From an uncultured bacterium (GTDB taxonomy: Bacteria; Verrucomicrobiota; Kiritimatiellia; RFP12; UBA1067): DNA of 64,000 bases. A program made the translations under genes and the position numbers. The number at the start of each line of letters is the position of its first letter. Positions within the stretch are counted from its first letter, which is position 1. Of the stretch, positions 1 to 56,827 are shown piece after piece. Under the pieces are notes generated by a model. It did not search any database, was not told the DNA's origin, and saw only the letters and a program-made list of their open reading frames with translations. The stretch spans positions 4,017-68,016 of the forward strand of contig CADCCQ010000002.1 in NCBI GenBank assembly GCA_902799955.1. Reading direction: 5' to 3'.

Positions 1-132
1 CTCGCCGCCGTGGTCGGCCGCGATATCTGCCGCGTCGCGTTCGACGTGCCTGCGCGCCTCGTCCGCCGAATCGAACTTCCTCGTCTCGCTTCCGTAGCCC
101 GACGCGCTGAACCTGACCGTTGTCTTCGCCAT
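1..132 (-). CDS. hypothetical protein, N-terminal fragment (continues past window start)
   Basis: ATG at 132-130 with GAAAGGAA upstream. Reads MAKTTVRFSASGYGSETRKFDSADEARRHVERDAADIAADHGGE with no stop to position 1. Confidence 0.4.
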   Translation of the reverse strand, partial: MAKTTVRFSASGYGSETRKFDSADEARRHVERDAADIAADHGGE

Positions 133-158
133 CTTGGTGTTCCTTTCGATGATGATGA

Positions 159-407
159 TCAGCGGCTCGGCTTCTTGACCTTGAACACCTTATGCCCAAA
201 TATCTTGTCGGCGAAAGCGTCCGCCTCGCGCCTCCTCTGGTGGATTACGTCCTGAAGGCGGTTAACCTCATCCTGAAGGCGATGAACCTCGGCATCCAAC
301 TCCTTGAGCTTGCGAATCTCGTCATCGGTCGGCTTGCGCGTCTCTCGCGAGACAATCGAATAATCGGATTCGAGGCTCTTCAGGAATCCTGCTGAATATC
401 TGGCCAT
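159..407 (-). CDS. hypothetical small coiled-coil protein (82 aa)
   Basis: ATG at 407 preceded by GGAAGGA. First gene after promoter-leader cassette 1. Heptad-like KLKELDAEVHRLQDEVNRLQD. Confidence 0.5.
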   Translation of the reverse strand: MARYSAGFLKSLESDYSIVSRETRKPTDDEIRKLKELDAEVHRLQDEVNRLQDVIHQRRREADAFADKIFGHKVFKVKKPSR

Positions 408-479
408 GTCATCCTTCCTTTCTTTTCGGTTTTCTTTCGCGTCCCTCGCGGGGGCCTTTCCCCCGTTGGAACAGCACAC

Positions 480-508
480 ATGATGCCGTAATAATTCACG
501 AATAGCAA
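480..508 (-). promoter_or_regulatory. repeated promoter element, copy 1
   Basis: Minus strand: -35 TTGCTA (508-503), 17-nt spacer, -10 CATCAT (485-480). A/T-rich tract upstream (511-540). Shares the CCGTTGCTAT...TACGGCATCAT blocks with the other copies. Confidence 0.6.
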
Positions 509-565
509 CGGCCCGTCTGAAGATTTATGAAGATTTTTTCGCCCGCAGAACGGCGGCGATCCAGC

Positions 566-603
566 GCAAAAAAACGAACCCCGCCCTTGTGCAGGACGGG
601 GTC
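566..603 (-). terminator. rho-independent terminator after 627..935
   Basis: Minus strand: ACCCCG...CGGGGT stem followed by TCGTTTTTTTG. Confidence 0.55.
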
Positions 604-626
604 ATTGGCTTCGCTGTCGCCTTCGC

Positions 627-935
627 TCACTTCAGCTCGGTGCGGGCGACCACGTATGTGGCGGAGATGCAGTAGCATCTGACGCCCCTCGCGCCCGCGT
701 TCGGGTCGACGAGGACGTTCACCTCGCGCGGCAGCGGGGTGTCGAGAACCTTCTCCATGATTTGTCTTACCCACTCGCCCATCTCGGCCTTCTCGGCCTC
801 GCTCTTCGGCTCGTTCGTGTAGTCGGTGTCGTGGATCATCACCGCGTCGTCCCTCTCCAGGAACACATGCCCGAGCCTCGCCTCCTTGACGGCCTTCGCC
901 AGCGCGCTTGCCTCGTATGCCTCTTGTATCGTCAT
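627..935 (-). CDS. hypothetical protein (102 aa)
   Basis: ATG at 935 with AAAGGAGAA SD. Sits downstream of promoter copy 2. Confidence 0.5.
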   Translation of the reverse strand: MTIQEAYEASALAKAVKEARLGHVFLERDDAVMIHDTDYTNEPKSEAEKAEMGEWVRQIMEKVLDTPLPREVNVLVDPNAGARGVRCYCISATYVVARTELK

Positions 936-1007
936 TGTCGTTCTCCTTTGCTTTCGGTTTTCGGTTGCGTCCTTCCTGCGGGCCTTTCCCGCTCAAGGAA
1001 CGACACT

Positions 1008-1036
1008 ATGATGCCGTAATAATTCACGAATAGCAA
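1008..1036 (-). promoter_or_regulatory. repeated promoter element, copy 2
   Basis: -35 TTGCTA (1036-1031), 17-nt spacer, -10 CATCAT (1013-1008). Confidence 0.6.
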
Positions 1037-1158
1037 CGGCCCTTCTGCATAAATCTTCAGCGCCGAAAACCGAGCCGCCTTTTAAACCGACGCCAACCCA
1101 TCCGAGGCCGGAGCGGACTCGGACGCGGTTGGCGGTTTGAACCTGCCCTGGGCGGCTG

Positions 1159-1353
1159 TTACTTCTTCGCGGCCTTCTTGACCGCAGCCTTCGCCTTCGC
1201 GACGGGCTTCGCCGTCTTTGCGGCGGGCTTCTTCGTCGCAGCCCTGACTGCGGCCTTCTTGACCGCCACGGGCTTCGCCGCCGCCTTCGTCTTCGGCGCG
1301 GGCTTCTTGGCTGCGGGCTTCTTCGCGGGCTTGGCTGCTTTCTTGGTTGCCAT
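1159..1353 (-). CDS. histone H1-like Lys/Ala/Pro-rich DNA-binding protein (64 aa)
   Basis: MATKKAAKPAKKPAAKKPAPKTKAAAKP... AKP-type repeats throughout. AAGGAG lies 8 nt upstream of the ATG at 1353. Confidence 0.6.
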   Translation of the reverse strand: MATKKAAKPAKKPAAKKPAPKTKAAAKPVAVKKAAVRAATKKPAAKTAKPVAKAKAAVKKAAKK

Positions 1354-1514
1354 GTCGTCGGCTCCTTTCATGGTTTTTACGATACACATATTTTACCAAA
1401 GTCCTCCGCGTCGAACAACGGCAACGCCGGCTTTTCGACGAAAGGAAAGCCGTCGGCGTTTCGCATGAAACTCCGACGGCGCTCGAGAAAGCCTGGCGAG
1501 GATCGCCTTTCGCG

Positions 1515-2039
1515 CTATAGGAGGCTTGACGCCTCGCGGAGCGTCGACTCGCAGTCCTCGATCTGCGACTTCATCAGGCTTAGAATGCCGCGAAGCTCCT
1601 TTATGCCGCCCTTGCCAAGGCCGTCGGCAAGCGCAAGGCAGTCTATCCCCGCCAGCGATCCCGACACCTTCTGGAGCGCGACGCTGGCCTTACCCGCGTT
1701 CATGCAGATGACGTCGGGCTTCGGCTTCCTCGCCCTTGGATGCTTTGCCTTGTACTCGCTTCTTGTTTTCTCGCGGAACTTCGCGTTGCACCAGCCGATC
1801 AGTTCGTCGGTTCCCTTGCCGCAGAGCTTGGCAAGATGGTCGAGCATCATCTCGCGCGTCATCGTGTCGCTGTGCCTCGCGGCCTCGCCCATCGAGTCGC
1901 CCGACTCCATGCTCTTCCGCATGTCCGCAAACGTCAGCGTCGGCGGCATTTCCCCGACCGCCCACAGCTCTTCGGGATGCACCCGCTTGAACCATCCGAG
2001 GATGGTCTCGTCCAGCCCCCTGCCCTTTTTCTGTTTCAT
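1515..2039 (-). CDS. hypothetical protein (174 aa), paralogue of 2942..3508
   Basis: ATG at 2039 with GGAAAGGA SD. Shares the W-x2-RVHP-x-E...T-[VL]-TF...M motif with 2942..3508. Confidence 0.5.
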   Translation of the reverse strand: MKQKKGRGLDETILGWFKRVHPEELWAVGEMPPTLTFADMRKSMESGDSMGEAARHSDTMTREMMLDHLAKLCGKGTDELIGWCNAKFREKTRSEYKAKHPRARKPKPDVICMNAGKASVALQKVSGSLAGIDCLALADGLGKGGIKELRGILSLMKSQIEDCESTLREASSLL

Positions 2040-2075
2040 TTTATCGTCCTTTCCATTGAGTTGTTTACGCCGCAT

Positions 2076-2104
2076 ATGATGCCGTAGGTTTCTGATGATA
2101 GCAA
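2076..2104 (-). promoter_or_regulatory. repeated promoter element, copy 3 (divergent spacer)
   Basis: -35 TTGCTA (2104-2099), 17-nt spacer, -10 CATCAT (2081-2076). Confidence 0.55.
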
Positions 2105-2238
2105 CGGCCCATTTGAAGAATTATGAAGATTTCTTTCCGACCGCAGAAGAGGCGGATTTCCGGGCGATGAATCGCCCGCCACGGGACAGCAGGCGGACGA
2201 CGGCAAGACGCACGTCCCGCCGCAGGCGACGATGTGTA

Positions 2239-2376
2239 TCACGCCCGCGTCAGCGCGTCCTCAAGGGCGTACCCGATTGCCGCGAGTCGCGCGACGGCGA
2301 TGTCGAAGTCGCCGCCCGCGCAATAGCCCGCGATGACCTCGCGGGCCTCGCCTCTGAGTTTTTCGATCTCGTTCAT
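2239..2376 (-). CDS. hypothetical small protein (45 aa)
   Basis: ATG at 2376 preceded by AAAGGAGAG. MNEIEKLRGEAREVIAGYCAGGDFDIAVARLAAIGYALEDALTRA. Confidence 0.45.
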   Translation of the reverse strand: MNEIEKLRGEAREVIAGYCAGGDFDIAVARLAAIGYALEDALTRA

Positions 2377-2408
2377 GGTGTCGCTCTCCTTTCTCGTTTC
2401 GGCCAAAC

Positions 2409-2783
2409 CTACTCGACCGCCCAGGTCAGGCGTTCGTCGGGGAAGGACTGGAGCGCGAGGTCTGCAATCGCCTTCAGGCACACAAGCGCCTTCTTCGCGT
2501 TTCCGTCCGTGGCCTTCCAGTAGTCCGCGTCGGGCTGTGCTTCGCCGAGCGCGGCTATCGCCTTGTCGAGGACGGGAAGCGAATCCCTGACGCATCCGCC
2601 GTCGAGCGAACGCAGTCCATCGCCCCCGATCACCCGATGGAAGGTGCCCGCGTAGTTGTACGTGACGTACAGCCATGCGTCCTTCGTGCCGCCGACGGCA
2701 TACGTACCACCGGCGATCTCGTGCTTTTCCGGCAGGAGGACGTCCTTTCCGTCCTCGTGCTTGATCCTTACGCTGTAGCCCAT
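2409..2783 (-). CDS. hypothetical protein (124 aa)
   Basis: ATG at 2783. First gene after promoter copy 4. Confidence 0.5.
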   Translation of the reverse strand: MGYSVRIKHEDGKDVLLPEKHEIAGGTYAVGGTKDAWLYVTYNYAGTFHRVIGGDGLRSLDGGCVRDSLPVLDKAIAALGEAQPDADYWKATDGNAKKALVCLKAIADLALQSFPDERLTWAVE

Positions 2784-2837
2784 CTTCGTTTTCCTTTCTT
2801 AGTTCGCCCCAGGGGGCAGCTTTCACATGCAGACACT

Positions 2838-2866
2838 ATGATGCCGTAATCCGGCGGAAATAGCAA
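2838..2866 (-). promoter_or_regulatory. repeated promoter element, copy 4 (divergent spacer)
   Basis: -35 TTGCTA (2866-2861), 17-nt spacer, -10 CATCAT (2843-2838). Confidence 0.55.
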
Positions 2867-2941
2867 CGGCCTATTTTGAGAATTATCGAGACGCGAAAAT
2901 CGGCGGATGGAGGCGACCGCCCGCCCCCATCCGCCATCGTG

Positions 2942-3508
2942 CTATTCAGCCTTTAGCGGATAGCCCTTGGCCTTGAGAGCCTTGTCTACCTCGGCGGCGA
3001 GAACCTTGCGCTTCGCCTCGTCCGCCTTTCTCTCCTTGGCGTTCTCGTGCGGGGCTGCGGCAAGCCACAGACCGTACCAGACATCGTAGTCGGTGTCCGT
3101 CAGTTCGGCAAGACGCTCGAAGCAACGCTGGCGCTGCTCCGACTCCCCGCAGTCGAGGATCTCGTAGAAGTTCTCGCCGTCGCGCATCCGCCTCGCCAGC
3201 TCGACGAACGTGACCGTTTCGGAGAAGTCTTCCATCCAGTCGCGCTCGCCGGGATGGACGCGGAGCATCCAGTCGCGCACGACCTCGTTGAGCCCGCTCC
3301 TCTCGGGGTCGCCGCCAAGCTCCTCGATCTGTCTGTCGAGTTCGACCTTGAGCGCGTCCATCACCGCCTTGACCGCCTTTGGATTTGCGATGCCGGACTT
3401 CCTGCCGTCGAGGTGCGTCACCTCGATTAGCTTCGCGCCCCGCTCCGCGTAGGTGCGGCGGCAGCGTATGAGGTTGTCCCTCAGCTCGGTCTTCTGCTTT
3501 TTCGTCAT
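2942..3508 (-). CDS. hypothetical protein (188 aa), paralogue of 1515..2039
   Basis: ATG at 3508. Contains VRDWMLRVHPGERDWMEDFSETVTFVELARRM, compared with ILGWFKRVHPEELWAVGEMPPTLTFADMRKSM in 1515..2039. Confidence 0.5.
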   Translation of the reverse strand: MTKKQKTELRDNLIRCRRTYAERGAKLIEVTHLDGRKSGIANPKAVKAVMDALKVELDRQIEELGGDPERSGLNEVVRDWMLRVHPGERDWMEDFSETVTFVELARRMRDGENFYEILDCGESEQRQRCFERLAELTDTDYDVWYGLWLAAAPHENAKERKADEAKRKVLAAEVDKALKAKGYPLKAE

Positions 3509-3583
3509 GGTTCTTTTCCCTTTCGTTTCTGTTTTCGGTTTTTGCCGCGCCTCCCGCTTGGGGAGGTCGCGGCGGTTTGAAAT

Positions 3584-3865
3584 TCATGCCCAGAAGGATT
3601 CGTAATCCTCGCCATCGTCGGCGTCCTCGTCGTAGCCGTTCGCCGCGTCCTCGGCGCGGTCTATCATCTCCTCCATCTCGTCGAGCTTCTCGCGCATCGC
3701 CTTGATCGCCTCGCGCATCTTCGCCCACTCGTCGAAGTCGAATTCGCGTAGGTGCGTCTCGTCAAGCGTCCGCTCGGTGTCGGTCGCAATCTCCTCGCCG
3801 AGGTTTTCGAGGTCTTCGGCAATCGCCTGCGCCCCGTAGGTCGTCGTCGTGTTCATCGTCGTCAT
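3584..3865 (-). CDS. highly acidic small protein (93 aa; alternative in-frame start at 3856)
   Basis: D/E-rich throughout, for example EDAANGYDEDADDGEDYESFWA at the C-terminus. First gene after promoter copy 5. Confidence 0.5.
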   Translation of the reverse strand: MTTMNTTTTYGAQAIAEDLENLGEEIATDTERTLDETHLREFDFDEWAKMREAIKAMREKLDEMEEMIDRAEDAANGYDEDADDGEDYESFWA

Positions 3866-3929
3866 CCTTTCGTTTTCGGTTTTCGTTTCGCCCCTCTTCG
3901 CGGGCCTTTCCCGCTCAAGGAACGCCAGT

Positions 3930-3958
3930 ATGATGCCGTAATAATCCAGGAATAGCAA
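3930..3958 (-). promoter_or_regulatory. repeated promoter element, copy 5
   Basis: -35 TTGCTA (3958-3953), 17-nt spacer, -10 CATCAT (3935-3930). Confidence 0.6.
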
Positions 3959-4183
3959 CGGCCCATTTGAAGATTTTTCATTATTTTTTCGCCCGCGAAA
4001 TCGCCGCGAAAAACGCCCTGTTTGCCCACCTCGCGGAGGCCGGGGAAACGCCCGCCCAACGCCCACGGACGCGTCCTGCGGCGACTGTGGCGCAATAGCG
4101 GGGAGAACGGAAAAGCCGACGGAGAGAGCGTCCCTCCGTCGGCCAAACGAATACCGAATTCATGCGGCCTTGCCGCGATTGCG

Positions 4184-4726
4184 TCATTTCATGGCGACCC
4201 ACCTCCTTTTCTCGATTGGCTTCAAAGCGCCGAAGGCGTTAGGCAATCCCCAGTACCTCGCGCCCGTCGCGCAGGTGATGCGGTAGCCGTCGGGGTAGGG
4301 CTTGCCCTCGCGGAGCTTCCGCGTCTCGGGCGTCATCGCGTAGGTGAACGCGGGAACGCGGTAGCGGATCGCGCGGCTTCCCATCAGCTCGGCGTGGACG
4401 ATGACCTTGACGCAGTTGTAGACGCTGGGGTACCCCTCGTAGAGGTCGAGGCGGTGAAGCTCGGTCTTCGTGACGAGGTATAGGACGCCCTCTACGCGGC
4501 TTCCGCGCGAACGCTCGATGTCCGCGTAGAGCCTCTCGACGAGCCGCCAGCCCTTGAGCGTGGCGCGGCCCACGGCCCGCGCCTCGGGTATGCGGCGGCG
4601 TATCTGCTCGGGGTTCATGTTTGACCCGTAGGCGAAGTACAGGAATGTGTCGGGGCTCGTGGCGAAGCTCCCCTCGCACGCGCTCCAGTTCCAAGTCGGG
4701 CGTTTGCATTCGTCTGCAATCTTCAT
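4184..4726 (-). CDS. gamma-glutamylcyclotransferase / AIG2-like family protein (180 aa)
   Basis: FAYGSNMNPEQI N-terminal motif and LDLYEGYPSVY catalytic-Glu motif. AAAGGAG SD before the ATG at 4726. Confidence 0.7.
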   Translation of the reverse strand: MKIADECKRPTWNWSACEGSFATSPDTFLYFAYGSNMNPEQIRRRIPEARAVGRATLKGWRLVERLYADIERSRGSRVEGVLYLVTKTELHRLDLYEGYPSVYNCVKVIVHAELMGSRAIRYRVPAFTYAMTPETRKLREGKPYPDGYRITCATGARYWGLPNAFGALKPIEKRRWVAMK

Positions 4727-4795
4727 CTTTTCGCTCCTTTCGTTTTACGCTGGCCTTGCCTCGCCTCCCCTCGCGGGGAGGCGGGGCGTCCGCCT

Positions 4796-5686
4796 TCAGT
4801 CGTGCCGCCCGTCCTTCCAAGCCGCCGAGCCGGGCAGGTTCTTGCAGAGGTGCTTGCGCATCGACTTGAAGGTCTCGCCGTTCGCGCCTAGCCTCAAAAG
4901 GAAAACGCGGAAGTCGTACTTCGCGCTCGCCTCGCTGTAGGGGCGCGGGTTCTTCGCGCTCGCCGCCTTCGCGCTCTTCGCCTTGAGAACCATCAGGAGG
5001 TCGATCAGAACCGCCGCCTTGATGACACCCGCGTGGAGGCTCTGCTCGTGGTAGCGGAACTCGACCGTCCCCTTGGTTCCGTTCCAAAGGTTGTGGAGGT
5101 TAAGGGCGCGGTAGCGCGCCGAGGAGTAGTGGCTGTTGCGGTCGCGGCATCCCCCGTAGTAGGCGTCCGCGAGCTTCGCCATCGTCGGGTTGTGCATCGC
5201 GCAAATCTTGTCGACGAAGGTGTGGTCGGTGCGGCGCGTGTAGCTGCTGATGCGAGCCTCCTGCGTCCCCGTCGCCTTGAGGATCAGCGTCTCCTGTTTG
5301 TAGAAAATCTTGACGAGGTTCTTGATCTGCGTCGGGGTCATCCCCTGCGCCCCGACGTGGACGTGGAGCCCCGTGCGGCTGTTGACCTTCGCGTGGGCTT
5401 TCCTCATCGCCCTCACCACCTTCTGGAGGGTGTCCATGTCGCCGTAGCGAAGAATCGGCGTGACCACCTCGGCGCTCGTTCCCCAAAGGCTGCCGTCGCT
5501 CACGATGTTCCACTTGCGTCCGTCGGGCATCGTCACCACCCAGTTGTGGAGGTGGTAGCCTTCGTACCTCGCCGTGCCGCCCGTGACCTCCGCGACCACC
5601 TTGGCCGCCCGCTCCTGGCTGATTCCCTCGTACTCGAGTTCGCACCCGTAGGTGAGGCTCGCCAATTCTGCTTCCGTTATCGTCAT
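4796..5686 (-). CDS. amidoligase (glutamine-synthetase-like, Amidoligase_2 type), 296 aa
   Basis: YGCELEYEG, TGLHVHVG and GTVEFRYHE motifs typical of the phage/plasmid amidoligase family. First gene after promoter copy 6. Confidence 0.7.
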   Translation of the reverse strand: MTITEAELASLTYGCELEYEGISQERAAKVVAEVTGGTARYEGYHLHNWVVTMPDGRKWNIVSDGSLWGTSAEVVTPILRYGDMDTLQKVVRAMRKAHAKVNSRTGLHVHVGAQGMTPTQIKNLVKIFYKQETLILKATGTQEARISSYTRRTDHTFVDKICAMHNPTMAKLADAYYGGCRDRNSHYSSARYRALNLHNLWNGTKGTVEFRYHEQSLHAGVIKAAVLIDLLMVLKAKSAKAASAKNPRPYSEASAKYDFRVFLLRLGANGETFKSMRKHLCKNLPGSAAWKDGRHD

Positions 5687-5758
5687 CTTCTTGTCTCCTG
5701 TTTTTCGGTTTTCGTTTGCGTCCCTCGCGGAGGCCTTTCCCCCGTTGGAACAGCGCAT

Positions 5759-5787
5759 ATGATGCCGTAATACTTCACGGATAGCAA
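5759..5787 (-). promoter_or_regulatory. repeated promoter element, copy 6
   Basis: -35 TTGCTA (5787-5782), 17-nt spacer, -10 CATCAT (5764-5759). Confidence 0.6.
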
Positions 5788-6123
5788 CGGGGTATTTGAT
5801 TATTTTTGATTATTTTTCACTATTTTTTATAACTTTGGATAACGGGGCTATTATCGCCGCTTACGGGCGGTTTACGCATCTCGGAAACGCGGGATTCCTG
5901 CGGCTCGGCAAAAGAAATCCCGACGCCCGCCGCGATTCGGCGGCAGACGCCGGGAGTGTGTTTGAAAAAAGAGCCGGACGGGGCGGAGGTCTCGGGTGCG
6001 GCATGGGCAACGATGGTCGCGCCGCACCGTTTCGGCGCTTTCGGCGGAGAGGCGCGAAAACCGTCGCGCCAAGGGAGTTCCGCCTACTCGCGTCGTGCCT
6101 CGCCCCGTCCGGCGAGATTGGCT

Positions 6124-6609
6124 TTACTTCGCGTCGGTCTCCGCGTTCCTGTATCCCGCCTTGCGGTAGGCGACCCAGTCGCCCGATTCGATGACGGGCG
6201 CATCCTTGCGGAGGTTGTTCATGATGTAGACCCAGGCGAGGACGTTGCCTCCGCCGACGAGGTGAACCTGAATCTGCTCGCGGCGGTAGAGGTGCGGGTA
6301 GCCCTCAAGCCTGTCCATCGACTTGAAGCCGTCGTCGTTGACGGTCAGCACCTCGCCCTTGACGTGCGTCCGTCCGCGCTTCACGAACGCGGGGAAGCGG
6401 CAGCCCGTGTCGTAGATGGTGCCTGTGGTCCACGCCTTCTGTCGGCGGGCGTTCCCCGCCCAGTGCGCGTTGGCTTCGCCCGCGATGAGCGTCCCGTAGA
6501 CGAAGACCTTGTGTTCCTCGTCGCGGCAGGGAAGGCCGAGAGCCTTTTCGCACCGCCTCCGCACGGACGGAGGGAGGTGCCTGATTTCAAGTTCGATTGG
6601 CGTTTGCAT
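6124..6609 (-). CDS. gamma-glutamylcyclotransferase / AIG2-like family protein (161 aa)
   Basis: VFVYGTLIAGEANAH and MDRLEGYPHLYRR motifs. GAAAGGAA SD before the ATG at 6609. Confidence 0.7.
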   Translation of the reverse strand: MQTPIELEIRHLPPSVRRRCEKALGLPCRDEEHKVFVYGTLIAGEANAHWAGNARRQKAWTTGTIYDTGCRFPAFVKRGRTHVKGEVLTVNDDGFKSMDRLEGYPHLYRREQIQVHLVGGGNVLAWVYIMNNLRKDAPVIESGDWVAYRKAGYRNAETDAK

Positions 6610-6698
6610 TTTCGAGTTCCTTTCTATTTTACCATTTTTGGTTTCGGCTGTGCGCCCGAGCCTCGGCGCAAGCACCGAGGCACAGGACGCGGGATTGT

Positions 6699-7040
6699 TC
6701 AGTCGACCTCGGTGGCGTTCACCTCGGTCTTGTCGAGTTCAAGGTCGCTCACCTTGATGTCCTCGGCGGTGAAGCGGTCTCGGACAATCTCCTCGGCCTC
6801 GCTCTCGCTCGACGCCCTGACGTCGAACGAGCCCGCGAAGGTCGCATGGAGACTCACCGAGTAGGTGCGCTTCTCTTCGTCGCCTACGCCGTAGTCATCG
6901 GGGGCGCATTCGCTCACGCACACGGCAAGCGTCCGTCCGCCTCCGGCTTCGATCCAGATGGTGTGGCCGTCCGAGTCGCACTTCGCGTTCGCGGCCTTGA
7001 GCGCGTCCATGAGGATGCTGTGAATCTTCATCTCGTCCAT
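6699..7040 (-). CDS. hypothetical protein (113 aa)
   Basis: ATG at 7040. Compact spacing within the operon driven by promoter copy 7. Confidence 0.45.
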   Translation of the reverse strand: MDEMKIHSILMDALKAANAKCDSDGHTIWIEAGGGRTLAVCVSECAPDDYGVGDEEKRTYSVSLHATFAGSFDVRASSESEAEEIVRDRFTAEDIKVSDLELDKTEVNATEVD

Positions 7041-7109
7041 TTTCGTTTCCTTTCTCGTCGTGGTTTGAGGGTTGCCTCCACCCCCGCCTTGGGGGTGGAG
7101 GCGTTCGCC

Positions 7110-7319
7110 TTACCTCGCGGCGAGGGCTGCGGCCTTGGCGACCTGCAGCTGGCGAATCTGGTAGGCGAGGCTGCGCATCTCGACCGCGTAGGTTTCGAGG
7201 GCGGGAAGGTTCTCCCGCGTCAGCGGAAGCTCCCCGACCATCCTCGCGAACTTGCGCACCCGCATCTCCTTGACCATGAGCTGTGCGTTCAGCTCTGCCA
7301 TCATCTCTTCGTCGCCCAT
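7110..7319 (-). CDS. hypothetical small protein (69 aa)
   Basis: ATG at 7319. First gene after promoter copy 7. Confidence 0.45.
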   Translation of the reverse strand: MGDEEMMAELNAQLMVKEMRVRKFARMVGELPLTRENLPALETYAVEMRSLAYQIRQLQVAKAAALAAR

Positions 7320-7389
7320 TTTCTTGCCTTTCCTTTTTTGGTTTTCGTTTGCCTTCGGGTACTCCCTTTTCCCCGTTGGAACAGCGCAT

Positions 7390-7418
7390 ATGATGCCGTA
7401 ATGTTCCAGGAATAGCAA
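7390..7418 (-). promoter_or_regulatory. repeated promoter element, copy 7
   Basis: -35 TTGCTA (7418-7413), 17-nt spacer, -10 CATCAT (7395-7390). Confidence 0.6.
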
Positions 7419-7583
7419 CGGGGTATTTGAAGATTTTTTATTATTTTTTACACCTTTTTATAAGTTTCGATTATTGGGCGATTTACGGCGGTTTTGGCCT
7501 TCGGAAGAGGCGGAATTTCGGCGTTCGCAGGGAGGCTCGGCGAGGCGAGCTGACGGATGGGGAGTGCGGGCAAATCCCGCAAG

Positions 7584-7622
7584 ACGAAAAATGCCCGCCC
7601 CGCGTCAATGCGGAACGGGCAT
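7584..7622 (-). terminator. rho-independent terminator after 7646..8011 (A/T runs on both sides)
   Basis: ATGCCCG...CGGGCAT stem. Followed by TTTTTCG on the minus strand and TTTTC on the plus strand. Confidence 0.55.
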
Positions 7623-7645
7623 TTTCAATGAGGGCGACGGCGGAT

Positions 7646-8011
7646 TCAGATGCCGAGATCGTTTAGGCGACGGCGCAAGGCAAGTTCCTGCGCCTCGGAG
7701 AGACCGACGGAGTTGCATTCGCCGTCGTCGGCGCAGACGAAAGTGTCGCCGACGATGACATCGTTGTGAAAAAGAATCTCCGCGAGAATCGTCGCCTTGG
7801 GATTGTAGGATCGCTCCTTGAACTTTCCCTCCTCGTCGAGAAAAAGGTCAAGCCCGTCGAGGCCGTTGCCGGAAAGACACCACCGCTCAATGTCGCCGCC
7901 GACCATCGACTGCATCGTCTCAAGCGTGAGGTTGCCGTCGGCGTCGGTCTCGACTTCGACAAACTCCCAATCACCTCTCGCGGGGATTTTCAGAATCTTC
8001 GCCTTTGCCAT
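7646..8011 (-). CDS. DUF3846-like protein (about 121 aa)
   Basis: MAKAKILKIPARGDWEFVEVETD...LETMQSMVGGDIE matches the DUF3846 N-terminal pattern as I recall it. AAAGGAG lies 7 nt before the ATG at 8011; an ATG at 8017 is an alternative start. Confidence 0.55.
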   Translation of the reverse strand: MAKAKILKIPARGDWEFVEVETDADGNLTLETMQSMVGGDIERWCLSGNGLDGLDLFLDEEGKFKERSYNPKATILAEILFHNDVIVGDTFVCADDGECNSVGLSEAQELALRRRLNDLGI

Positions 8012-8071
8012 TTTCATGCTCCTTTCTGTTGCATCACCCCTCGGCGTTTCCGCCGAGGGGCGTGACATTCT

Positions 8072-8305
8072 TCAGCGGTCGATGAGCCCGACGAGCCCGG
8101 ACAGGAATCCGTCCGTCATCTCCGCCGCCGCAAGCGTTCCCGAAAACGCTCCGCGCAGTTGAAACACCCCGCTGGCGTTTCCCTTCTTGGCGAGCTTGAA
8201 GGCCATCTCCCTCGCATCCTTCATCGTGTCAGCCATCGCCGAAATCCGGCTGGCGAGGATGTTGATCCTCCTCTGCTCCAGCGTCTCGTTCTGCATCTCT
8301 TCCAT
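8072..8305 (-). CDS. hypothetical small protein (77 aa)
   Basis: ATG at 8305 with GAAAGGAAAA SD. Confidence 0.45.
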   Translation of the reverse strand: MEEMQNETLEQRRINILASRISAMADTMKDAREMAFKLAKKGNASGVFQLRGAFSGTLAAAEMTDGFLSGLVGLIDR

Positions 8306-8369
8306 CGTCGTTTTCCTTTCTTTGCGCCCCGCCCTCGGCGTTCCCGCCGAGGCGCAGGGCATTGTGTTT

Positions 8370-8777
8370 TCAGTCTTCGTCGTCCTCGCCCTCGTCGCGG
8401 TCGAGGTCGTCGTCGATGAAGTCCATCCGCGAGTCCTCGGTGTTGGGCGTCGTCTCAAGTTCGGGGCGCTCCTTGATGAAGGCGAACATCTCCTCGACGA
8501 GGCGTTCGGTGAAATCCGTGTAGGCGTCCTCGCCGAGGCTTCCGTTCCAGACCTCGGCCGGGAACTCCGAGCCGCGAATCTTCTCAAGGTACCTCGCCGT
8601 GCCGTTGCAGGTTTCCTTTCCGTAGCCGACGTTGATCTTGTCGCCGTCGTTGTACCAGCGGTACCAGATGCGGTCGACCGCGCGGATTATTTCGCCCGCT
8701 ACCGTCTCGGCCTTGCCGGAGGCCGGCATCAGCCGCTCCTCCATCGCCGCCCATTCTTTCTTCTGCTCTTCCGTCAT
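8370..8777 (-). CDS. hypothetical protein with poly-acidic C-terminus (135 aa)
   Basis: ATG at 8777. Ends in DFIDDDLDRDEGEDDED. First gene after promoter copy 8. Confidence 0.5.
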   Translation of the reverse strand: MTEEQKKEWAAMEERLMPASGKAETVAGEIIRAVDRIWYRWYNDGDKINVGYGKETCNGTARYLEKIRGSEFPAEVWNGSLGEDAYTDFTERLVEEMFAFIKERPELETTPNTEDSRMDFIDDDLDRDEGEDDED

Positions 8778-8848
8778 TTTCGTCTTCCTTTCTTTTGGTT
8801 TTCGTCTGTCTTTCGGGTACTCCCTTTTCCCCTCAAGGAACGCTACAC

Positions 8849-8877
8849 ATGATGCCGTAATAATCCAGGAATAGCAA
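8849..8877 (-). promoter_or_regulatory. repeated promoter element, copy 8
   Basis: -35 TTGCTA (8877-8872), 17-nt spacer, -10 CATCAT (8854-8849). Confidence 0.6.
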
Positions 8878-8911
8878 CGGCCCATCTGAAGATTTATGAA
8901 GATTTTTCGAG

Positions 8912-8950
8912 GGCGAAAAGCCGCCGCAGAAACGGCGGCTGCGGCGGCTT
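8912..8950 (-). terminator. hairpin terminator after 8958..9263
   Basis: 12-bp stem AAGCCGCCGCAG/CTGCGGCGGCTT, then TTCG on the minus strand (short U-run). Confidence 0.45.
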
Positions 8951-8957
8951 CCGTCGG

Positions 8958-9263
8958 CTACTCCATGTCGTTGCACGAGAGTCCGTTGAGGTGCATCTCC
9001 TCGTCGGTGTTCGCGTCCATCTCGACGACGCAAGCCCAGCGGAAACACGCCTTCAGCTCGTCCTTCCAGTCGCGGATGAGCGTCGGGACCATCCGGCATC
9101 CATCCGAACCATCGTTCTTCATAACTGTCTTCGGCTCGTGCGGGGCGCGGCTTATCTCGCGCTCACCCGCCCCACGGTACGCCCAGCCAGCCCTCCAGAA
9201 GATCCGCTTCGCGGGATGCGCCTCAAGGTCTGCGACCACGGTTTCGTAGTTCACTGTGTTCAT
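8958..9263 (-). CDS. hypothetical protein (101 aa)
   Basis: ATG at 9263 (MNTVNYETVVADLEAHPAKR...). Confidence 0.45.
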   Translation of the reverse strand: MNTVNYETVVADLEAHPAKRIFWRAGWAYRGAGEREISRAPHEPKTVMKNDGSDGCRMVPTLIRDWKDELKACFRWACVVEMDANTDEEMHLNGLSCNDME

Positions 9264-9327
9264 CTTCGGTTTCCTTTCTCTGCGTCCCGCACCTCGGCAT
9301 GAATGCCGAGGCACAGGACATTTGGTT

Positions 9328-9519
9328 TCAGCCAAGAACTTTCTTCATCTCCTCGGGTGCAAGCTTGATGAAGATTTTTTCAAGCTCGCCGAAGAGTCCG
9401 TCACCTCCCCGCTTGTGGTAGGAGTTGAAGAACTCCGGGCCATGCTCGGAGGCGACGCCCATGATGGCGTCAAAGGCATCCGCGAGTTGCTGGCGTTCAG
9501 TCTTTGTAAGTTGGTTCAT
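9328..9519 (-). CDS. hypothetical small protein (63 aa)
   Basis: ATG at 9519. ORF as given in the supplied track. Confidence 0.45.
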   Translation of the reverse strand: MNQLTKTERQQLADAFDAIMGVASEHGPEFFNSYHKRGGDGLFGELEKIFIKLAPEEMKKVLG

Positions 9520-9582
9520 TGTCTTTTTCCTTTCTTTCTGTTGAGTTGCCCCGCCGCGAGATGCGGCGGAGGCTGTTGAAAT

Positions 9583-9954
9583 TCAATCCTCGCCACCGTC
9601 CTGCTCGGTTTCTTTCCAGGCATTGTTGTCGACGATGTCCGTGAACCACCGTCCGCCGATATCGAAGCGCGGCATCGTCACCCTATCGGAGTGTTCCATG
9701 TCCGCGAGCTTGACGCACACGAGCGTGCAATCAGTCTCGGGGTAGGCGTTCGTGCCTGTCAGCCCGTACATGCGGTTCATCACCGACCCCTCGATTGTGT
9801 AGACGTCCTCGCGCTTGAGAGGTGTCAGCTCCTTCACCCAGTCGAGGAGTTCCTTGAGGTTCTCCTCGTCTGGCGCGAGCCCCTCAATAGTCAGCGACCA
9901 GTCCTTGTAGAGCTCGTCAAGCTGCGCCTTCGTCGTTACCTTGATTATGTTCAT
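9583..9954 (-). CDS. hypothetical protein (123 aa)
   Basis: ATG at 9954 (MNIIKVTTKAQLDELYKDW...). First gene after promoter copy 9. Confidence 0.5.
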   Translation of the reverse strand: MNIIKVTTKAQLDELYKDWSLTIEGLAPDEENLKELLDWVKELTPLKREDVYTIEGSVMNRMYGLTGTNAYPETDCTLVCVKLADMEHSDRVTMPRFDIGGRWFTDIVDNNAWKETEQDGGED

Positions 9955-10026
9955 CTTCGTTGCCTTTCTTTCTTGGTTTTCGTCTGCCTTTCGGGTACTC
10001 CCATTTCCCCTCAAGGAACGCTACAC

Positions 10027-10055
10027 ATGATGCCGTAATAATCCAGGAATAGCAA
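10027..10055 (-). promoter_or_regulatory. repeated promoter element, copy 9
   Basis: -35 TTGCTA (10055-10050), 17-nt spacer, -10 CATCAT (10032-10027). Confidence 0.6.
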
Positions 10056-10112
10056 CGGGGTCTGCGAAGATTTATGAAGAATTATTTTATGAAGATTTTT
10101 GCGGATACCCCG

Positions 10113-10141
10113 TTGCTATTATCCGAATATTACGGCATACT
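10113..10141 (+). promoter_or_regulatory. inverted (plus-strand) copy of the repeated promoter element
   Basis: TTGCTA (10113-10118), 17-nt spacer, CATACT (10136-10141). Back-to-back with copy 9 across a shared A/T-rich tract. Points into the 3' end of the minus-strand late operon. Confidence 0.45.
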
Positions 10142-10181
10142 GGTGTCGGCATGCTGCGGCCACAGTTGCGCCGGCGGCATA

Positions 10182-10224
10182 AACGAAAAAAGCGGTCACG
10201 CCTCCATGATGGAAGCGTGACCGC
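10182..10224 (-). terminator. rho-independent terminator ending the late (structural) operon
   Basis: Minus strand: GCGGTCACGC, 13-nt loop, GCGTGACCGC, then TTTTTTCG. Lies 7 nt after the stop at 10231. Confidence 0.65.
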
Positions 10225-10230
10225 CACGGC

Positions 10231-10725
10231 CTACCTTTGAGCCTTGCAATCCGTACAGTTCCCGCAGTTCGCGTCCTCGTTACACCCGCCATCGGACGCT
10301 GCATCCGGCTGACAGTCTGAACAGCCGTCCGTGCATCCACCGCCGTCGCAGTCGCCGCTGGCATCGGGGATCGAGCAGTCGCCGCATCCACCTTGGGAGG
10401 CGGACGAAGGCGTTGCATTGGTGGCCGCGTCGCCCGTCGTGAGGTCGTCCATGATTCCCTCGTAGGCGAGCTGGGCGAGCGCGTGGAGACGCACAGCCTG
10501 CGAGGGTGTCAGCTTTCCCTCCGCCACCAGCGACTCGATCTTGTTGGAGACGGCCTCGCGCCCGCCCATGTCGTAGGCGGTCTGGATGACCGTGGCGATG
10601 TTCTGCTTGCGCGAACCTCCACCGAGAGACGAGCAGCCGATTATGGCCGCCACAGACACCGCCGCGATTGCCACGGCGACGATTGCCTTGCACACGGTGC
10701 GAGGCGTATTGTACTTTGCATCCAT
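10231..10725 (-). CDS. lipoprotein with Cys/Asp/Gly-rich C-terminal tail (164 aa)
   Basis: Signal peptide plus lipobox (VAAIIGC). C-terminus GGCGDCSIPDASGDCDGGGCTDGCSDCQPDAASDGGCNEDANCGNCTDCK. AAAGGAG SD. Confidence 0.6.
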   Translation of the reverse strand: MDAKYNTPRTVCKAIVAVAIAAVSVAAIIGCSSLGGGSRKQNIATVIQTAYDMGGREAVSNKIESLVAEGKLTPSQAVRLHALAQLAYEGIMDDLTTGDAATNATPSSASQGGCGDCSIPDASGDCDGGGCTDGCSDCQPDAASDGGCNEDANCGNCTDCKAQR

Positions 10726-10769
10726 TTGGATTACTCCTTTTCTGGTTTGTGTTGTTCGACACCGCGCGG

Positions 10770-10994
10770 TCACTTGCCGACGCTGATGACGCTGATTGTC
10801 TTGGCCGACCAGTCGGGCTGGCCAGTCTTGATGGTCTCGGACTTGAGTGCGCCGACCTTGAGCTTGTCCTCGCGCTCAAGGATGGTCTGGTCCGTAGGCT
10901 CGTAGAACTCGCGCTGGATTATCTCCTGCGAGGCGCAGCCGCACAGGGCGGCGAGGGCGGCGGCTGTGCCGCACAGGACAAGAAGCCGCTTCAT
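10770..10994 (-). CDS. small lipoprotein (74 aa)
   Basis: MKRLLVLCGTAAALAALCGC lipobox. ATGA overlap with the upstream gene. Confidence 0.55.
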   Translation of the reverse strand: MKRLLVLCGTAAALAALCGCASQEIIQREFYEPTDQTILEREDKLKVGALKSETIKTGQPDWSAKTISVISVGK

Positions 10995-11422
10995 GCCGCA
11001 CCGCCTTTCTCCCTCGCCTCGTAGGGCGCACGCCACGCGCTCCAGCCGAAGCGCTGGCAGACGCGCGCGAACTTCACCGCGTCCCACATGACCTTGTACC
11101 GCCTCGGCCTCCACCACCCGAATGCGGCGCAGGCGACCTTGCATCCGTTCCTGCGGAAACGGGCGTTGCTCATGTCGAATGCGGCGACGCTTCCGTCCGA
11201 CTCGTGCCACTCGACGTCGTGTATGAACGCGACCGGGGCGAGTGACGGATGAACGGCGTCCAGCGCGGCGCGAAGCCACTGCGGGAACGCCTCCGGCCCG
11301 ATTCCGTTGTAGATGGCCGCGAGCTGCTCGTCCGTGTACTTGGCGAGAATCTCGCGGTTCTCCAGCTCGTACCTCTCGCACAGCTCACGAAGCCGGCGAG
11401 CCTCTTCTACCGTAGTTCCCAT
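10991..11422 (-). CDS. hypothetical protein (143 aa)
   Basis: ATG at 11422, one nt after the upstream stop. No family recognised with confidence. Confidence 0.45.
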   Translation of the reverse strand: MGTTVEEARRLRELCERYELENREILAKYTDEQLAAIYNGIGPEAFPQWLRAALDAVHPSLAPVAFIHDVEWHESDGSVAAFDMSNARFRRNGCKVACAAFGWWRPRRYKVMWDAVKFARVCQRFGWSAWRAPYEAREKGGAA

Positions 11423-11423
11423 T

Positions 11424-11912
11424 TCAGTCCTCCTCCCAGATGCAGTTCTTGAGGATCGCCTCCGCGTCCTCGTCGCTCATGCCCGCGTACCGCTTGACTG
11501 CGGCGATGGCCTCGCCGAACATCTCGTTGTCCTCGCGGAAGTTCTGCGCCGCGAGGTAGTAGTCCCACCAGCCGCGCTCCTCGATCCACGTCTTCACCAA
11601 GACCCACTTGTCCGCCGCCTTGAGCGCGGCGACGAGCTTCAGCTTGGAGAACACCCTCGCCCTGGTCGGCTGCGGCTCGTCGGGCACCTGCTTGTAGATG
11701 CGGACGATTGAATCCGCCGTCTCCTCCCAGCCGCTCACCTCGACCGTGCATCCGTCCTCGGCCTTTGGCGGCTCGTCGACGATGCGCTTCCACCCCGCAG
11801 CGAGGTATGTTTCCGCGCTCGGGTTGCTGACGACGGTTCCGTCGTCGAGCGTTATCTTCGCGGGGGCGTATTCGACTTCGCCCCCGACCAGTTTTCCGTA
11901 GTTCCTGTTCAT
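11424..11912 (-). CDS. hypothetical protein (162 aa)
   Basis: ATG at 11912 with AAAGGAG SD. Confidence 0.5.
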   Translation of the reverse strand: MNRNYGKLVGGEVEYAPAKITLDDGTVVSNPSAETYLAAGWKRIVDEPPKAEDGCTVEVSGWEETADSIVRIYKQVPDEPQPTRARVFSKLKLVAALKAADKWVLVKTWIEERGWWDYYLAAQNFREDNEMFGEAIAAVKRYAGMSDEDAEAILKNCIWEED

Positions 11913-11929
11913 GCGTACTCCTTTTGTTT

Positions 11930-34536: not shown

Positions 34537-34604
34537 GGCGGCTCCCTCCTTCCCGGCCTTTATCCTCTTCGCACAATGGGGAATACATGGCATCCCCTCA
34601 CTCT

Positions 34605-34633
34605 CTTATACGACATCAGGTACACCGTTTTAA
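34605..34633 (-). promoter_or_regulatory. second promoter type, copy A (upstream of the methylase inserted in the head module)
   Basis: Minus strand: TTAAAA (34633-34628), 17-nt spacer, TATAAG (34610-34605). A roughly 35-nt block is near-identical to 50221-50255. Confidence 0.5.
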
Positions 34634-34656
34634 CAACATTTCTTCATGAAGTTTCC

Positions 34657-38773: not shown

Positions 38774-39046
38774 TGATGGGTTTCTCCTGTTAGGTTTCGA
38801 CTGCTCTCAATAGTAGTTTAGGATCGTGTGCGAGAGCGACACAGGATCCACGGTATCTATAGTGCTCTCCGGAGTCTATCTTCGTGTGACGTCACGAAAT
38901 GCGGCGACTATCGGCGGATTTTCGCCGAATATCGCCGGATTTCGCCGCTATCGGAGTGTGTTTCCATACTGGTATATAGTGTCGTCGGACGTTCAACACG
39001 CACGTAGACACGCACTATACACGCCACGGAAGCACACTTTTGATAG

Positions 39047-43080: not shown

Positions 43081-43243
43081 TTTCGGCCTCCTTGAAAAAT
43101 TACGTCAGTGAAAGAAAGTCTGCCCTGGAGCCGCGCTCCTTCCCGCGCCCTGCCTTTGAGAGGGGGTAGGGGAGGAACCGTGGCCTCGGCGGGACATATC
43201 GTCCCACCCGCCCGAGGCGGGTCATTTTTCCGCCCGTGGGCCG

Positions 43244-43273
43244 TTGACTTGTCCTCGCCGGTTATGGCATAAT
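43244..43273 (+). promoter_or_regulatory. sigma70-like promoter candidate with no downstream ORF
   Basis: TTGACT (43244-43249), 18-nt spacer, TGgCATAAT (43265-43273). Points into the palindrome array at 43394-43580. Confidence 0.35.
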
Positions 43274-43393
43274 GTCCCGCGTCGGCCGCTTCGGGTGCTT
43301 TTGGGTTTCGTCGCCCAACGGTTTTCGTTTCCCGCAGCGGCCGATTTTCCCTCCACTCCCGAAACAGGCGATTTTGCGCTTGGGCGGACACGG

Positions 43394-50407: not shown

Positions 50408-50451
50408 ATATGTCACTTGCATATAAAAACACATGACAAGAGAAGCCAAGC

Positions 50452-56296: not shown

Positions 56297-56827
56297 ATGA
56301 TGAAAACATCAGATTTATCAACATTCCCACTTGATATATCCCCCGTCATTACGGCATCATATCGGTCGGAAAGCATGAAAGGCGAAATGGAAGACGACAT
56401 TCGACATGAGATCGACCGACTCGCAGCGCTCGACCACGAGGCGCTGAAGATGGAATATCTCTCCCGTTTCGGCGGCACGGCGACCTTCGGCGATGTCTTC
56501 ATGCGCCGCCGCCTTGCGCAGCAAATCCAGGAGGATCGGCTCGGTGGCCTCACCGCCACGGAAATCGAACTGCTCGCGCGGGTCGCCCGCAAGGACGGAC
56601 GCGCAAACCCACGCGCCACGCGCAAGGCGAACCCCGCCGTGCGCGGCGTCACCTACACCCGGATGTATAAGGGACGCCTCGTCGCCGTGACGGCAGCGGG
56701 ACACGGGCAGTTCGAGTACGAAGGACAGCTCTATCCGTCCCTCACGGCCTGCGTCAAGGCAATCACGGGGACTCACTACTCTGGACGCAAGTTCTTCAGA
56801 CTTGGAGGCGAGCCATGCAGCAGGTAA
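56297..56827 (+). CDS. DUF2924-like protein (176 aa)
   Basis: GVTYTRMYKGRLVAVTAAGHGQFEYEGQLYPSLTACVKAITGTHYSGRKFFRL. Typical partner found upstream of large serine recombinases. Confidence 0.7.
   Translation: MMKTSDLSTFPLDISPVITASYRSESMKGEMEDDIRHEIDRLAALDHEALKMEYLSRFGGTATFGDVFMRRRLAQQIQEDRLGGLTATEIELLARVARKDGRANPRATRKANPAVRGVTYTRMYKGRLVAVTAAGHGQFEYEGQLYPSLTACVKAITGTHYSGRKFFRLGGEPCSR

Follow-up and report, generated by a model that had tools for sequence, protein, structure and literature searches.

Repeated promoters that accompany accessory genes have been described in T4-like phages, where the promoter-early stem-loops (PeSLs) each join a strong early promoter of sigma-70-like type to an A/T-rich tract upstream of it, a stem-loop terminator and a downstream Shine-Dalgarno (SD) sequence (PMC2839356, PMC4122927). 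PeSLs concentrate before ORFans in hyperplastic regions, and they were implicated in modular shuffling (Arbiol et al. 2010, PMC2839356; Comeau et al. 2014, PMC4122927). In this article we analyse an element that is repeated in a stretch of 64,000 nucleotides (nt) from an uncultured bacterium (GenBank assembly GCA_902799955.1, contig CADCCQ010000002.1, positions 4,017 to 68,016 of the forward strand; this whole stretch is called the window). The window carries a prophage of a Kiritimatiellia gut bacterium, temperate and of the lambda-like siphovirus type, and the element, with the core TTGCTA-N17-CATCAT, precedes its accessory genes. Judged from the sequence, the element is probably a promoter of the host housekeeping sigma factor fused to a leader, which would act as a portable expression module.

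PeSLs appear to be the closest described system, and the element may be called PeSL-like in its working, but not a PeSL, because its terminator lies outside the conserved motif, because it belongs to an unrelated, temperate phage, and because the evidence for recombination at the element is weak. Both systems have many copies of a sigma-70-like promoter with an A/T-rich tract and with SD and start codon at the 3' end; in both, stem-loop terminators are associated, the copies lie in a plastic, ORFan-rich region, and there is a link to modular shuffling. Whereas the terminator of a PeSL is within the promoter or overlaps it, the terminators here are separate, unrelated in sequence and found upstream of six of the nine units. 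PeSLs belong to lytic T4-like myoviruses, the element to a temperate lambda-like siphovirus prophage of a bacterium of the Planctomycetes-Verrucomicrobia-Chlamydiae group; the element moreover adds a covarying hairpin in the transcribed leader, and its hexamers depart from the host consensus (C at -12 and -15).

Morons, known from lambdoid phage genomics, are units of promoter, gene and terminator inserted in late regions. The accessory region resembles them in having, as far as its sequence tells, autonomous units of this kind past the prophage tail genes, insulated from read-through of the late operon. Classical morons, however, have unrelated promoters each, whereas nine consecutive units here share one promoter-leader module, which would also drive the integrase operon.

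In the mechanism that we propose the element would be the core of a portable module of ~130-170 bp in temperate lambda-like siphovirus prophages of the Kiritimatiellia. Such a module would comprise an upstream-promoter (UP)-like tract from -55 to -41, the TTGCTA box, a 17-bp spacer, a TRYG-type extended -10 (T-17 A-16 C-15 G-14 G-13), the CATnAT box, a leader of 37-73 nt with a GC hairpin in most cases and, finally, a purine-rich tract with a GAAAGGA SD. Host RNA polymerase with the housekeeping sigma factor would read it; each copy would drive one to three small accessory genes, with an intrinsic terminator ending most units, so that the accessory arm would be a row of insulated, independently transcribed cassettes 3' of the terminated late operon. 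The same promoter would drive the operon of DUF2924 and the serine integrase, and two backward-facing copies may be transcription units as well, probably non-coding. Since the same module stands on every cassette, cassettes could be gained, lost and reordered without loss of expression.

Copies of the element and their leaders

A first-pass annotation of the window had listed nine copies on the minus strand and one on the plus strand, and all of them were recovered: the nine as exact TTGCTA-N17-CATCAT (at 480, 1008, 2076, 2838, 3930, 5759, 7390, 8849 and 10027), the plus-strand copy at 10113 with two mismatches (CATACT). When up to two mismatches were allowed, 11 matches were found against 1.3 expected, a number reached by none of 100 shuffles. 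The blocks CCGTTGCTAT and TACGGCAT are invariant in the alignment of the ten copies, and the A/T tract upstream, AAATCTTCATAAATCTTCA (GAAGATTT on the plus strand), is common to them, as had been described. It had escaped the annotation that their similarity extends through the leader down to the ATG. An nhmmer profile built from relatives' copies only recovered the same ten sites (E = 2e-14 to 4e-11), and the same profile raised the total to 12 with two extra copies in the window, none of the copies lying in its host DNA. The spacer is 17 nt long in all ten array copies and 18 nt in these two variants, at 43241(+) and 56328(+). Each array copy is correctly oriented, 37-73 nt upstream of an SD and an ATG; the start codons of the cassette open reading frames (ORFs) were set by the conserved GAAAGGA.

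The variant at 56308-56365(+) heads the genes of DUF2924 (56375-56827) and of the large serine integrase (56815-58110), and the one at 43241(+) is directed into iteron-like repeats (43390-43590), towards the 3' end of the primase gene. From the backward copy at 10113(+) transcription would run into non-coding DNA and into the late (tail) operon at its 3' end, and would probably yield a non-coding or antisense RNA.

Public collections were scanned for CCGTTGCTAT-N11-TACGGCAT, which gave 10 viral and 64 genome loci. The family has more than 200 distinct copies, clustered on prophage contigs of Kiritimatiellia and Lentisphaerae from gut and rumen. Nearly all loci come from gut or rumen, on contigs that bear the label Kiritimatiellia, Lentisphaerae or Verrucomicrobiota or that belong to unclassified or probably mis-binned metagenome-assembled genomes (MAGs). 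Several copies per contig are usual in the relatives, with as many as 7 within 8 kb, and their upstream tract and style of leader are the same. No copy was met in a clearly non-prophage context among the scanned loci; a few isolated matches in unrelated A/T-rich contexts look like chance, for which ~17 would be expected in that collection with 18 fixed bases by a rough estimate.

Two further observations were made on these contigs. Some of them (L016, L022, L024, L034, L037, L044, L050, L057, L071) are binned to MAGs of Clostridia, Gemmiger, Selenomonadales and Thermoguttaceae; because the phage sequences are identical, binning errors are more likely than a broad host range. In L013, L026, L038, L061, L062, L064, L073 and other relatives two copies stand face to face ~100 bp apart (e.g. 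L061, ~6269-6480), an arrangement absent from the window. The facing copies are predicted to give fully overlapping antisense RNAs (GTCGGACGATGGGATAGGG.. against GGCGTGGTGC..), which recalls face-to-face switch promoters. Neither the leader nor the putative non-coding RNAs of the relatives matched an Rfam family.

Variation within the family was read with the anchor on one block while the other was scored, which limits ascertainment bias; 145 copies were anchored on the left block alone, with a filter of at least 5 of 8 block matches that inflates apparent conservation somewhat. On the -35 side T-35 is kept in 96%, T-34 in 74% (G in 23%), G-33 in 88%, C-32 in 73%, T-31 in 83%, A-30 in 76% and T-29 in 84%. 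The block upstream of the -10 box is nearly fixed (T-17 99%, A-16 100%, C-15 99%, G-14 100%, G-13 99%), and so are C-12 (98%), A-11 (100%), T-10 (97%) and T-7 (97%), with -9 and -8 variable (CATCAT, CATAAT, CATACT, CATATT, CATAGT, CATTAT). The region from -55 to -41 is A/T-rich across the family.

Two features of the first-pass annotation did not hold beyond this genome. The conserved spacer is essentially free across the family and is a feature of recently related copies here; the dyad CCGT-N4-ATT..AAT-N4-ACGG is likewise not general, the left CCG being kept in 58-81% and the right ACGG in 99-100%. A dyad or dimeric operator was thus rejected, since its left half-site and spacer vary across the family.

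Group-1 sigma factors leave a characteristic signature, in which A-11 and T-7 are kept, -9 and -8 vary, the -35 box is of TTG type and the spacer has 17 nt. The element would be a promoter of this class, as every sequence attribute is present: A-11 and T-7 are invariant, -9 and -8 variable, the -35 box is TTG-type and the spacer 17 nt, with 4 of 6 matches of TTGCTA to the sigma-70 consensus TTGACA. Other classes were compared by inspection with their generally known consensus sequences. The -35 box is similar to that of sigma-32, but the invariant T at -7 is not the position that sigma-32 requires, and neither sigma-28 nor sigma-54 fits the element.

The transcribed leader was studied in 58 non-redundant leaders of the family. 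Most of them fold into a GC-rich hairpin, whose loop begins ~20 nt past the -10 box, and they are stabler than dinucleotide shuffles (mean z = -1.8, 53% below -2). In 31 hairpins aligned on the loop 87% of the helix cells are paired, against 25-55% in slid registers, a percentage inflated by the fact that these hairpins were picked for folding. The count of compensatory changes is not affected by this choice: 44 double-sided changes were found against 13.5 in shuffles, and none of 500 shuffles reached 44. The loop keeps ANAGG despite the changing stems. The hairpin has no U-run and is therefore no terminator in the sense direction; a role in messenger stabilisation or processing is suggested, and protein binding, like that of boxB or of a CsrA site, is possible.

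Similar GC-rich hairpins without U-runs are seen between ORFs inside the cassettes, at 4758-4787, 7074-7102, 8037-8060 and 9284-9319 and, by eye, at ~3545-3580, 8328-8362 and 9551-9578. Each is followed by an A-rich tract and an SD, as in the leaders; hairpin and SD therefore precede every ORF and not just the first of a unit.

Candidate readers of the element

In E. coli (rrn) and B. subtilis strong promoters of stable RNAs are known that combine a UP element with an extended -10 of TRTG type. The tRNA cluster of the window has the promoter AAAAAAATCAAAATTCCCTC-TTGCTT-N18-(TGTGA)TATACT, and among the relatives' contigs a transfer-messenger RNA gene (L064) is preceded by TATGA-TATAAT and a tRNA gene (L043) by TTTGC-TATAAT. 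The prophage itself contains two canonical promoters, TTGCTG..TGGTATAAT at ~50380 and TTGTTC..TGGTAAAAT at ~1400, both with T-15 and G-14. From these stable-RNA and canonical promoters it follows that the host uses TRTG-type extended -10 promoters, and the TAYGG block of the element sits exactly at the extended -10 position. The element and the tRNA promoter of the window have the A-rich tract and the TTGCT -35 box in common, and the profile of the element matches that promoter at 59192-59158 (E = 0.065). Because extended -10, A-rich tract and TTGCT box resemble those of host promoters, the host housekeeping holoenzyme is the most economical and most likely reader of the element. The likeness comprises the A-rich tract upstream of the -35 box, the TTGCT box and T-R-Y-G at -17 to -14; the stable-RNA promoters, however, have TATAAT or TATACT, with a T at -12 and at -15, where the element retains C.

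Several observations weigh against a plain host promoter as the whole explanation. C-15 and C-12 are 98-99% invariant where host promoters have T; such a promoter, even a strong one, would leave them unexplained, which hints at an additional specific factor. TTGCTA and CATCAT together give 8 of 12 hexamer matches, and a generic sigma-70 scan called none of the copies. As to recombination, endpoints of homology blocks are only modestly enriched in promoter-leader units, with 42 of 195 cases against 13.9% expected and a nominal p of 0.0025 for observations that are not independent.

The last point touches on the proposal that the element is a recombination or attachment-type site, or a selfish repeat, which merely resembles a promoter. 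Cassette genes recur in the relatives in differing order and combination, so the gene order is mosaic; the prophage encodes a serine recombinase, and in the close relative L001 the homology breaks off at 50094 and sets in again exactly at 56323, where the element of the integrase operon has its upstream edge. Most homology breakpoints nevertheless lie outside the element, many of them at gene ends, and the evidence for crossover within it is weak. The strict orientation, the fixed distance to SD and ATG and the promoter-specific pattern of variation also speak against such a site, as does the lack of a conserved dyad and of a central crossover dinucleotide, and we hold this proposal to be highly improbable.

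The first-pass annotation had also offered the sigma factor of the phage itself as a possible reader. The ORF at 55406-56290 (earlier given as 55424-56290) indeed encodes a divergent protein of the sigma-70 family, by homologue, profile and structure matches. Alone it has no Pfam match; 9 of 17 homologues match Sigma70_r2 (best E = 5.7e-6) and one r4_2. The family profile finds sigma-E as its best PDB match, in regions 2 and 4 (E = 0.03), the ORF matches PHROG 1740 'RNA polymerase sigma factor' (E = 6.7e-4), and its AlphaFold model (pLDDT, a predicted confidence score, 72) finds with Foldseek in the PDB almost only sigma factors, mostly of the extracytoplasmic function (ECF) type. Only sigma2 and sigma4 were detected; region 3 was not.

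If the element were a phage-specific promoter class read by this protein, the close association of the two would be accounted for. They co-occur in IMG/VR contigs, and a copy of the element lies directly downstream of the sigma-like ORF in every examined relative with such an ORF. The order of sigma-like ORF, element copy, DUF2924 and large serine integrase is conserved, at 55406-58110(+) in the window and in L045, L052, L034, L030, L001/L004 and L075/L076. The sigma-like gene, however, is hypervariable (from 100% identity to E ~5e-5, the latter in L001), and DUF2924 and integrase can stay 93-97% identical. This variability includes the recognition helix of sigma4, which reads MQFRRHILQSL in the window, YERRYLSPI in L052, L034 and L030 and FKFNMLRPL in L001, beside identical element copies of unchanged consensus. 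The promoters of ECF sigma factors have an AAC-containing -35 and a CGT-containing -10 ~16-17 nt apart and no extended -10, whereas the element has TTGCTA, CATnAT and an extended -10 block and lacks the AAC and CGT motifs. An ECF-like protein would thus face a promoter with the group-1 hallmarks A-11, T-7, 17-nt spacer and extended -10. The phage sigma factor is disfavoured as the reader, and we consider this explanation unlikely.

A better candidate target for it is a second motif, GTTAAAAC..TCGTATAAGAGAGTG, which tracks the closer sigma alleles. It has two copies in the window (Table 1) and occurs in L075/L076 (4857-4892) and L077 (~8133-8170); in the form GTTAAAACnGTGTACCnnnTGTCGTATAAGAGAGTG it is readable as a TTAAAA-N17-TATAAG promoter or as an ECF-like AAC..CGT promoter. 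The motif recurs in phages with closer sigma alleles and is absent at the corresponding position in L001, whose allele is very different. On this pattern the phage sigma more plausibly targets the motif than the element, although the association of motif and allele could be plain physical linkage.

Returning to the host holoenzyme as the reader, its promoter might have an overlapping operator, with TTACGGCAT doubling as the binding site of one conserved regulator, encoded by phage or host. This tentative idea adds a layer to the host-promoter explanation and does not replace it; the regulator would be either a repressor silencing ~12 units together, or an activator or appropriator needed for the non-consensus -12 and -15. 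In the 145 left-anchored copies TTACGGCAT is 98-100% invariant, a figure somewhat inflated by the filter of that set, against 73-96% on the -35 side; judged by these figures it is more conserved than the -10 region requires. C-15 and C-12 depart from the T of host promoters and of the canonical promoters of the prophage, and the same block is found at functionally different promoters, namely those of the cassettes, of the integrase operon, of the origin-side copy and of the convergent pairs of the relatives. The search for the regulator speaks against it: Pfam scans of ~75 prophage ORFs gave no repressor-, Cro- or CsrA-like protein, and the DNA-binding matches were just a RelB-like ribbon-helix-helix (RHH) protein and a weak ParB helix-turn-helix. 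Nor does TTACGGCAT stand alone away from promoters: each exact copy belongs to a full promoter, and matches with one mismatch elsewhere do not exceed chance. The left half-site of the proposed dyad, moreover, lacks conservation.

In this respect the stoperators of Cluster A mycobacteriophages should be mentioned, which lie within transcribed regions and block elongation when the immunity repressor is bound (PMC9283540, PMC6550527). They are likewise short asymmetric sequences, of which a temperate phage genome has ~10-30 copies, all oriented alike with respect to transcription and more conserved than their surroundings; unlike them, every copy of the element is a complete promoter, there are no promoter-less copies, and the scans of the prophage gave no repressor-like ORF.

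It is conceivable, though with no great confidence, that TTACGGCAT marks a dedicated phage promoter class which needs a specificity factor of phage or host beside the host polymerase. If so, the factor would be a global repressor, an activator or a polymerase-modifying protein, and this one factor would switch about a dozen units together, namely those of the accessory cassettes, of the integrase operon and of the antisense RNAs. Control might act a second time on the RNA, through the ANAGG loop conserved in the leader hairpin, in the manner of boxB or of a CsrA site. C5-methylation by the phage methylases, making the two C's mimic T, was considered and set aside as speculation, with no methylase recognition site evident in the block.

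The cassette array

The prophage is recognised by the large serine integrase at 56815-58110(+), three tRNA genes beyond it (58870-59125) with host genes after them, one of which encodes a sigma-54 activator, and on the minus strand by lambda-type portal, capsid, terminase, tape-measure and tail genes and a replication module. A megablast of window positions 1-12000 against the INPHARED phages gave no match, and Rfam found the three tRNAs and nothing else in the window. The array is located 3' of the terminator of the late operon, between the tail genes and the attachment site, a classical accessory or moron place. That terminator (Table 1) would insulate the cassettes from the late operon.

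Each unit of the array follows the order of A/T-rich tract, promoter, leader of 37-73 nt (with a hairpin in most), SD and one to three ORFs. The three terminators reported in the first-pass annotation (566-603, 7584-7622 and 8912-8950) are real, and three more, which end units 3, 4 and 5, were added. A strong hairpin with a U-run therefore ends six of the nine units (dG -24 to -36, z -2.8 to -5.6); at the boundaries 2140-2215 and 1040-1110 there is weak structure or none. The picture of a string of units of promoter, one to three genes and terminator fits the sequence well, and such an architecture would let the units be transcribed separately. The ORF starting at 132 leaves the window, which makes it probable that the array extends past the left edge.

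The identifiable products are an Amidoligase_2 protein, two GGACT/AIG2 cyclotransferases, a DUF3846 protein and a weak match to DpnD/PcfM; for the other cassette ORFs none of Pfam, PHROG and PADLOC gave a match. A defence role of the cassette genes was considered and dropped, as PADLOC gave no matches. Between units 7 and 8 lies a gene for a small Lys/Ala/Pro-rich, histone-H1-like protein (1159-1389(-); ..KKAAKPAKKPAAKKPAPKTKAAAKP..), under its own canonical TTGTTC-N17-TGgTAAAAT promoter.

Table 1. Positions of the cassette units, the other copies of the element and further signals in the window (dG, folding free energy; z, z-score)
Feature	Position	Strand	Details
Unit 1 promoter	10023..10090	-	-35 TTGCTA 10055-10050, -10 CATCAT 10032-10027; UP-like tract to ~10090
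Unit 1 body	8912..10022	-	Leader 10026-9955; ORFs 9954-9583, 9519-9328, 9263-8958
Unit 1 terminator	8950-8912	-	Intrinsic; dG -27.2, z -2.8
Unit 2 promoter	8845..8910	-	-35 8877-8872, -10 8854-8849; UP-like tract
Unit 2 body	7584..8844	-	Leader; ORFs 8777-8370, 8305-8072, 8011-7646 (DUF3846)
Unit 2 terminator	7622-7584	-	dG -29.8, z -4.4
Unit 3 promoter	7384..7460	-	-35 7418-7413, -10 7395-7390; UP-like tract
Unit 3 body	5918..7383	-	Leader; ORFs 7319-7110, 7040-6699 (weak DpnD/PcfM match), 6609-6124 (GGACT)
Unit 3 terminator	5955-5918	-	dG -33.8, z -5.6
Unit 4 promoter	5753..5830	-	-35 5787-5782, -10 5764-5759; UP-like tract is a 10-nt TTTGATTATT repeat, 5795-5827
Unit 4 body	4114..5752	-	Leader with hairpin; ORFs 5686-4796 (Amidoligase_2), 4726-4184 (GGACT)
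Unit 4 terminator	4144-4114	-	dG -26.4, z -3.7
Unit 5 promoter	3924..3990	-	-35 3958-3953, -10 3935-3930
Unit 5 body	2895..3923	-	Leader; ORFs 3865-3584, 3508-2942
Unit 5 terminator	~2935-2895	-	dG -35.7, z -4.5
Unit 6 promoter	2836..2894	-	-35 2866-2861, -10 2843-2838
Unit 6 body	2140..2835	-	Leader; ORFs 2783-2409, 2376-2239; weak hairpin without good U-run 2140-2215, z -1.35
Unit 7 promoter	2071..2136	-	-35 2104-2099, -10 2081-2076; leader 37 nt, without hairpin
Unit 7 ORF	1515..2039	-	174 amino acids, no family match
Unit 8 promoter	1006..1068	-	-35 1036-1031, -10 1013-1008
Unit 8 body	577..1005	-	Leader with hairpin; ORF 935-627
Unit 8 terminator	603-577	-	dG -23.8, z -2.9
Unit 9 promoter	475..540	-	-35 508-503, -10 485-480
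Unit 9 body	1..474	-	Leader with CGGGGG-AAAGG-CCCCCG hairpin; ORF 407-159; ORF from 132 leaves the window
Backward-facing copy	10089..10143	+	-35 10113-10118, -10 CATACT 10136-10141; A/T tract common with divergent unit 1
Origin-side variant	43241..43273	+	CCGTTGACTT-N12-TATGGCATAAT, 18-nt spacer; nhmmer 43242-43275, E = 0.004
Integrase-operon variant	56308..56365	+	TTGATA 56331-56336, 18-nt spacer, TTACGG, CATCAT 56355-56360; nhmmer E = 2.4e-6
Late structural operon terminator	10191..10225	-	Strong, intrinsic; dG -30.5, z -6.7
Second repeated motif	34599-34634	-	GTTAAAACnGTGTACCnnnTGTCGTATAAGAGAGTG; between terminase and portal-side late genes
Second repeated motif	50220-50255	-	GTTAAAACnGTGTACCnnnTGTCGTATAAGAGAGTG; head of replication operon

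Other features of the prophage and meaning of the module

Some further features of the window were recorded in addition to the array. A low-GC island (0.49-0.53) at 50380-54680(+) encodes a RelB-like RHH protein together with an ABC-3C system (CTD7, MC3, DUF3732 ATPase), with its own canonical TTGCTG-N18-TATAAT promoter and a terminator at ~54750, and is probably a prophage-borne defence island. Next to it, at 54680-54830, four ACTACGC / GCGTAGT repeats, direct and inverted, stand upstream of two small ORFs and the sigma-like gene; they are possibly an operator region. The replication origin is probably the iteron-like region 43390-43590, where three inverted-repeat pairs ATTAGTTTT..AAAACTAAT lie in a gap of 500 bp next to the primase-helicase gene. 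At 37748-43080(-) a gene of S-adenosylmethionine synthetase adjoins three DNA methyltransferase genes, two of C5 type (one a weak match) and one of N6/N4 type fused to ParB_N, an unusually heavy load of DNA-modification genes for a prophage. In the host DNA a 14-nt tandem unit, GTCGTTAGTGGGTA, is repeated 8.4 times between two genes at 63034-63151 (7-nt sub-period TAGTGGG).

If the element is read as we propose, by the host housekeeping holoenzyme, this is a first sequence-based look at the promoter architecture of the Kiritimatiellia, a gut and rumen lineage almost wholly uncultured, and its features would be the UP-like tract, the TTGCT -35 box and the TRYG extended -10. The design of one module per ORFan cassette, known from lytic T4-like phages, would then be found in temperate siphoviruses of a distant phylum as well. 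The element may serve as a sharp marker of this prophage family in metagenomes. It also marks where the accessory genes begin, whose functions are probably counter-defence or host takeover, and it could provide a ready-made strong expression part for a group without genetic tools. Its invariant non-consensus bases offer a testable handle on a possible global regulator of these prophages.

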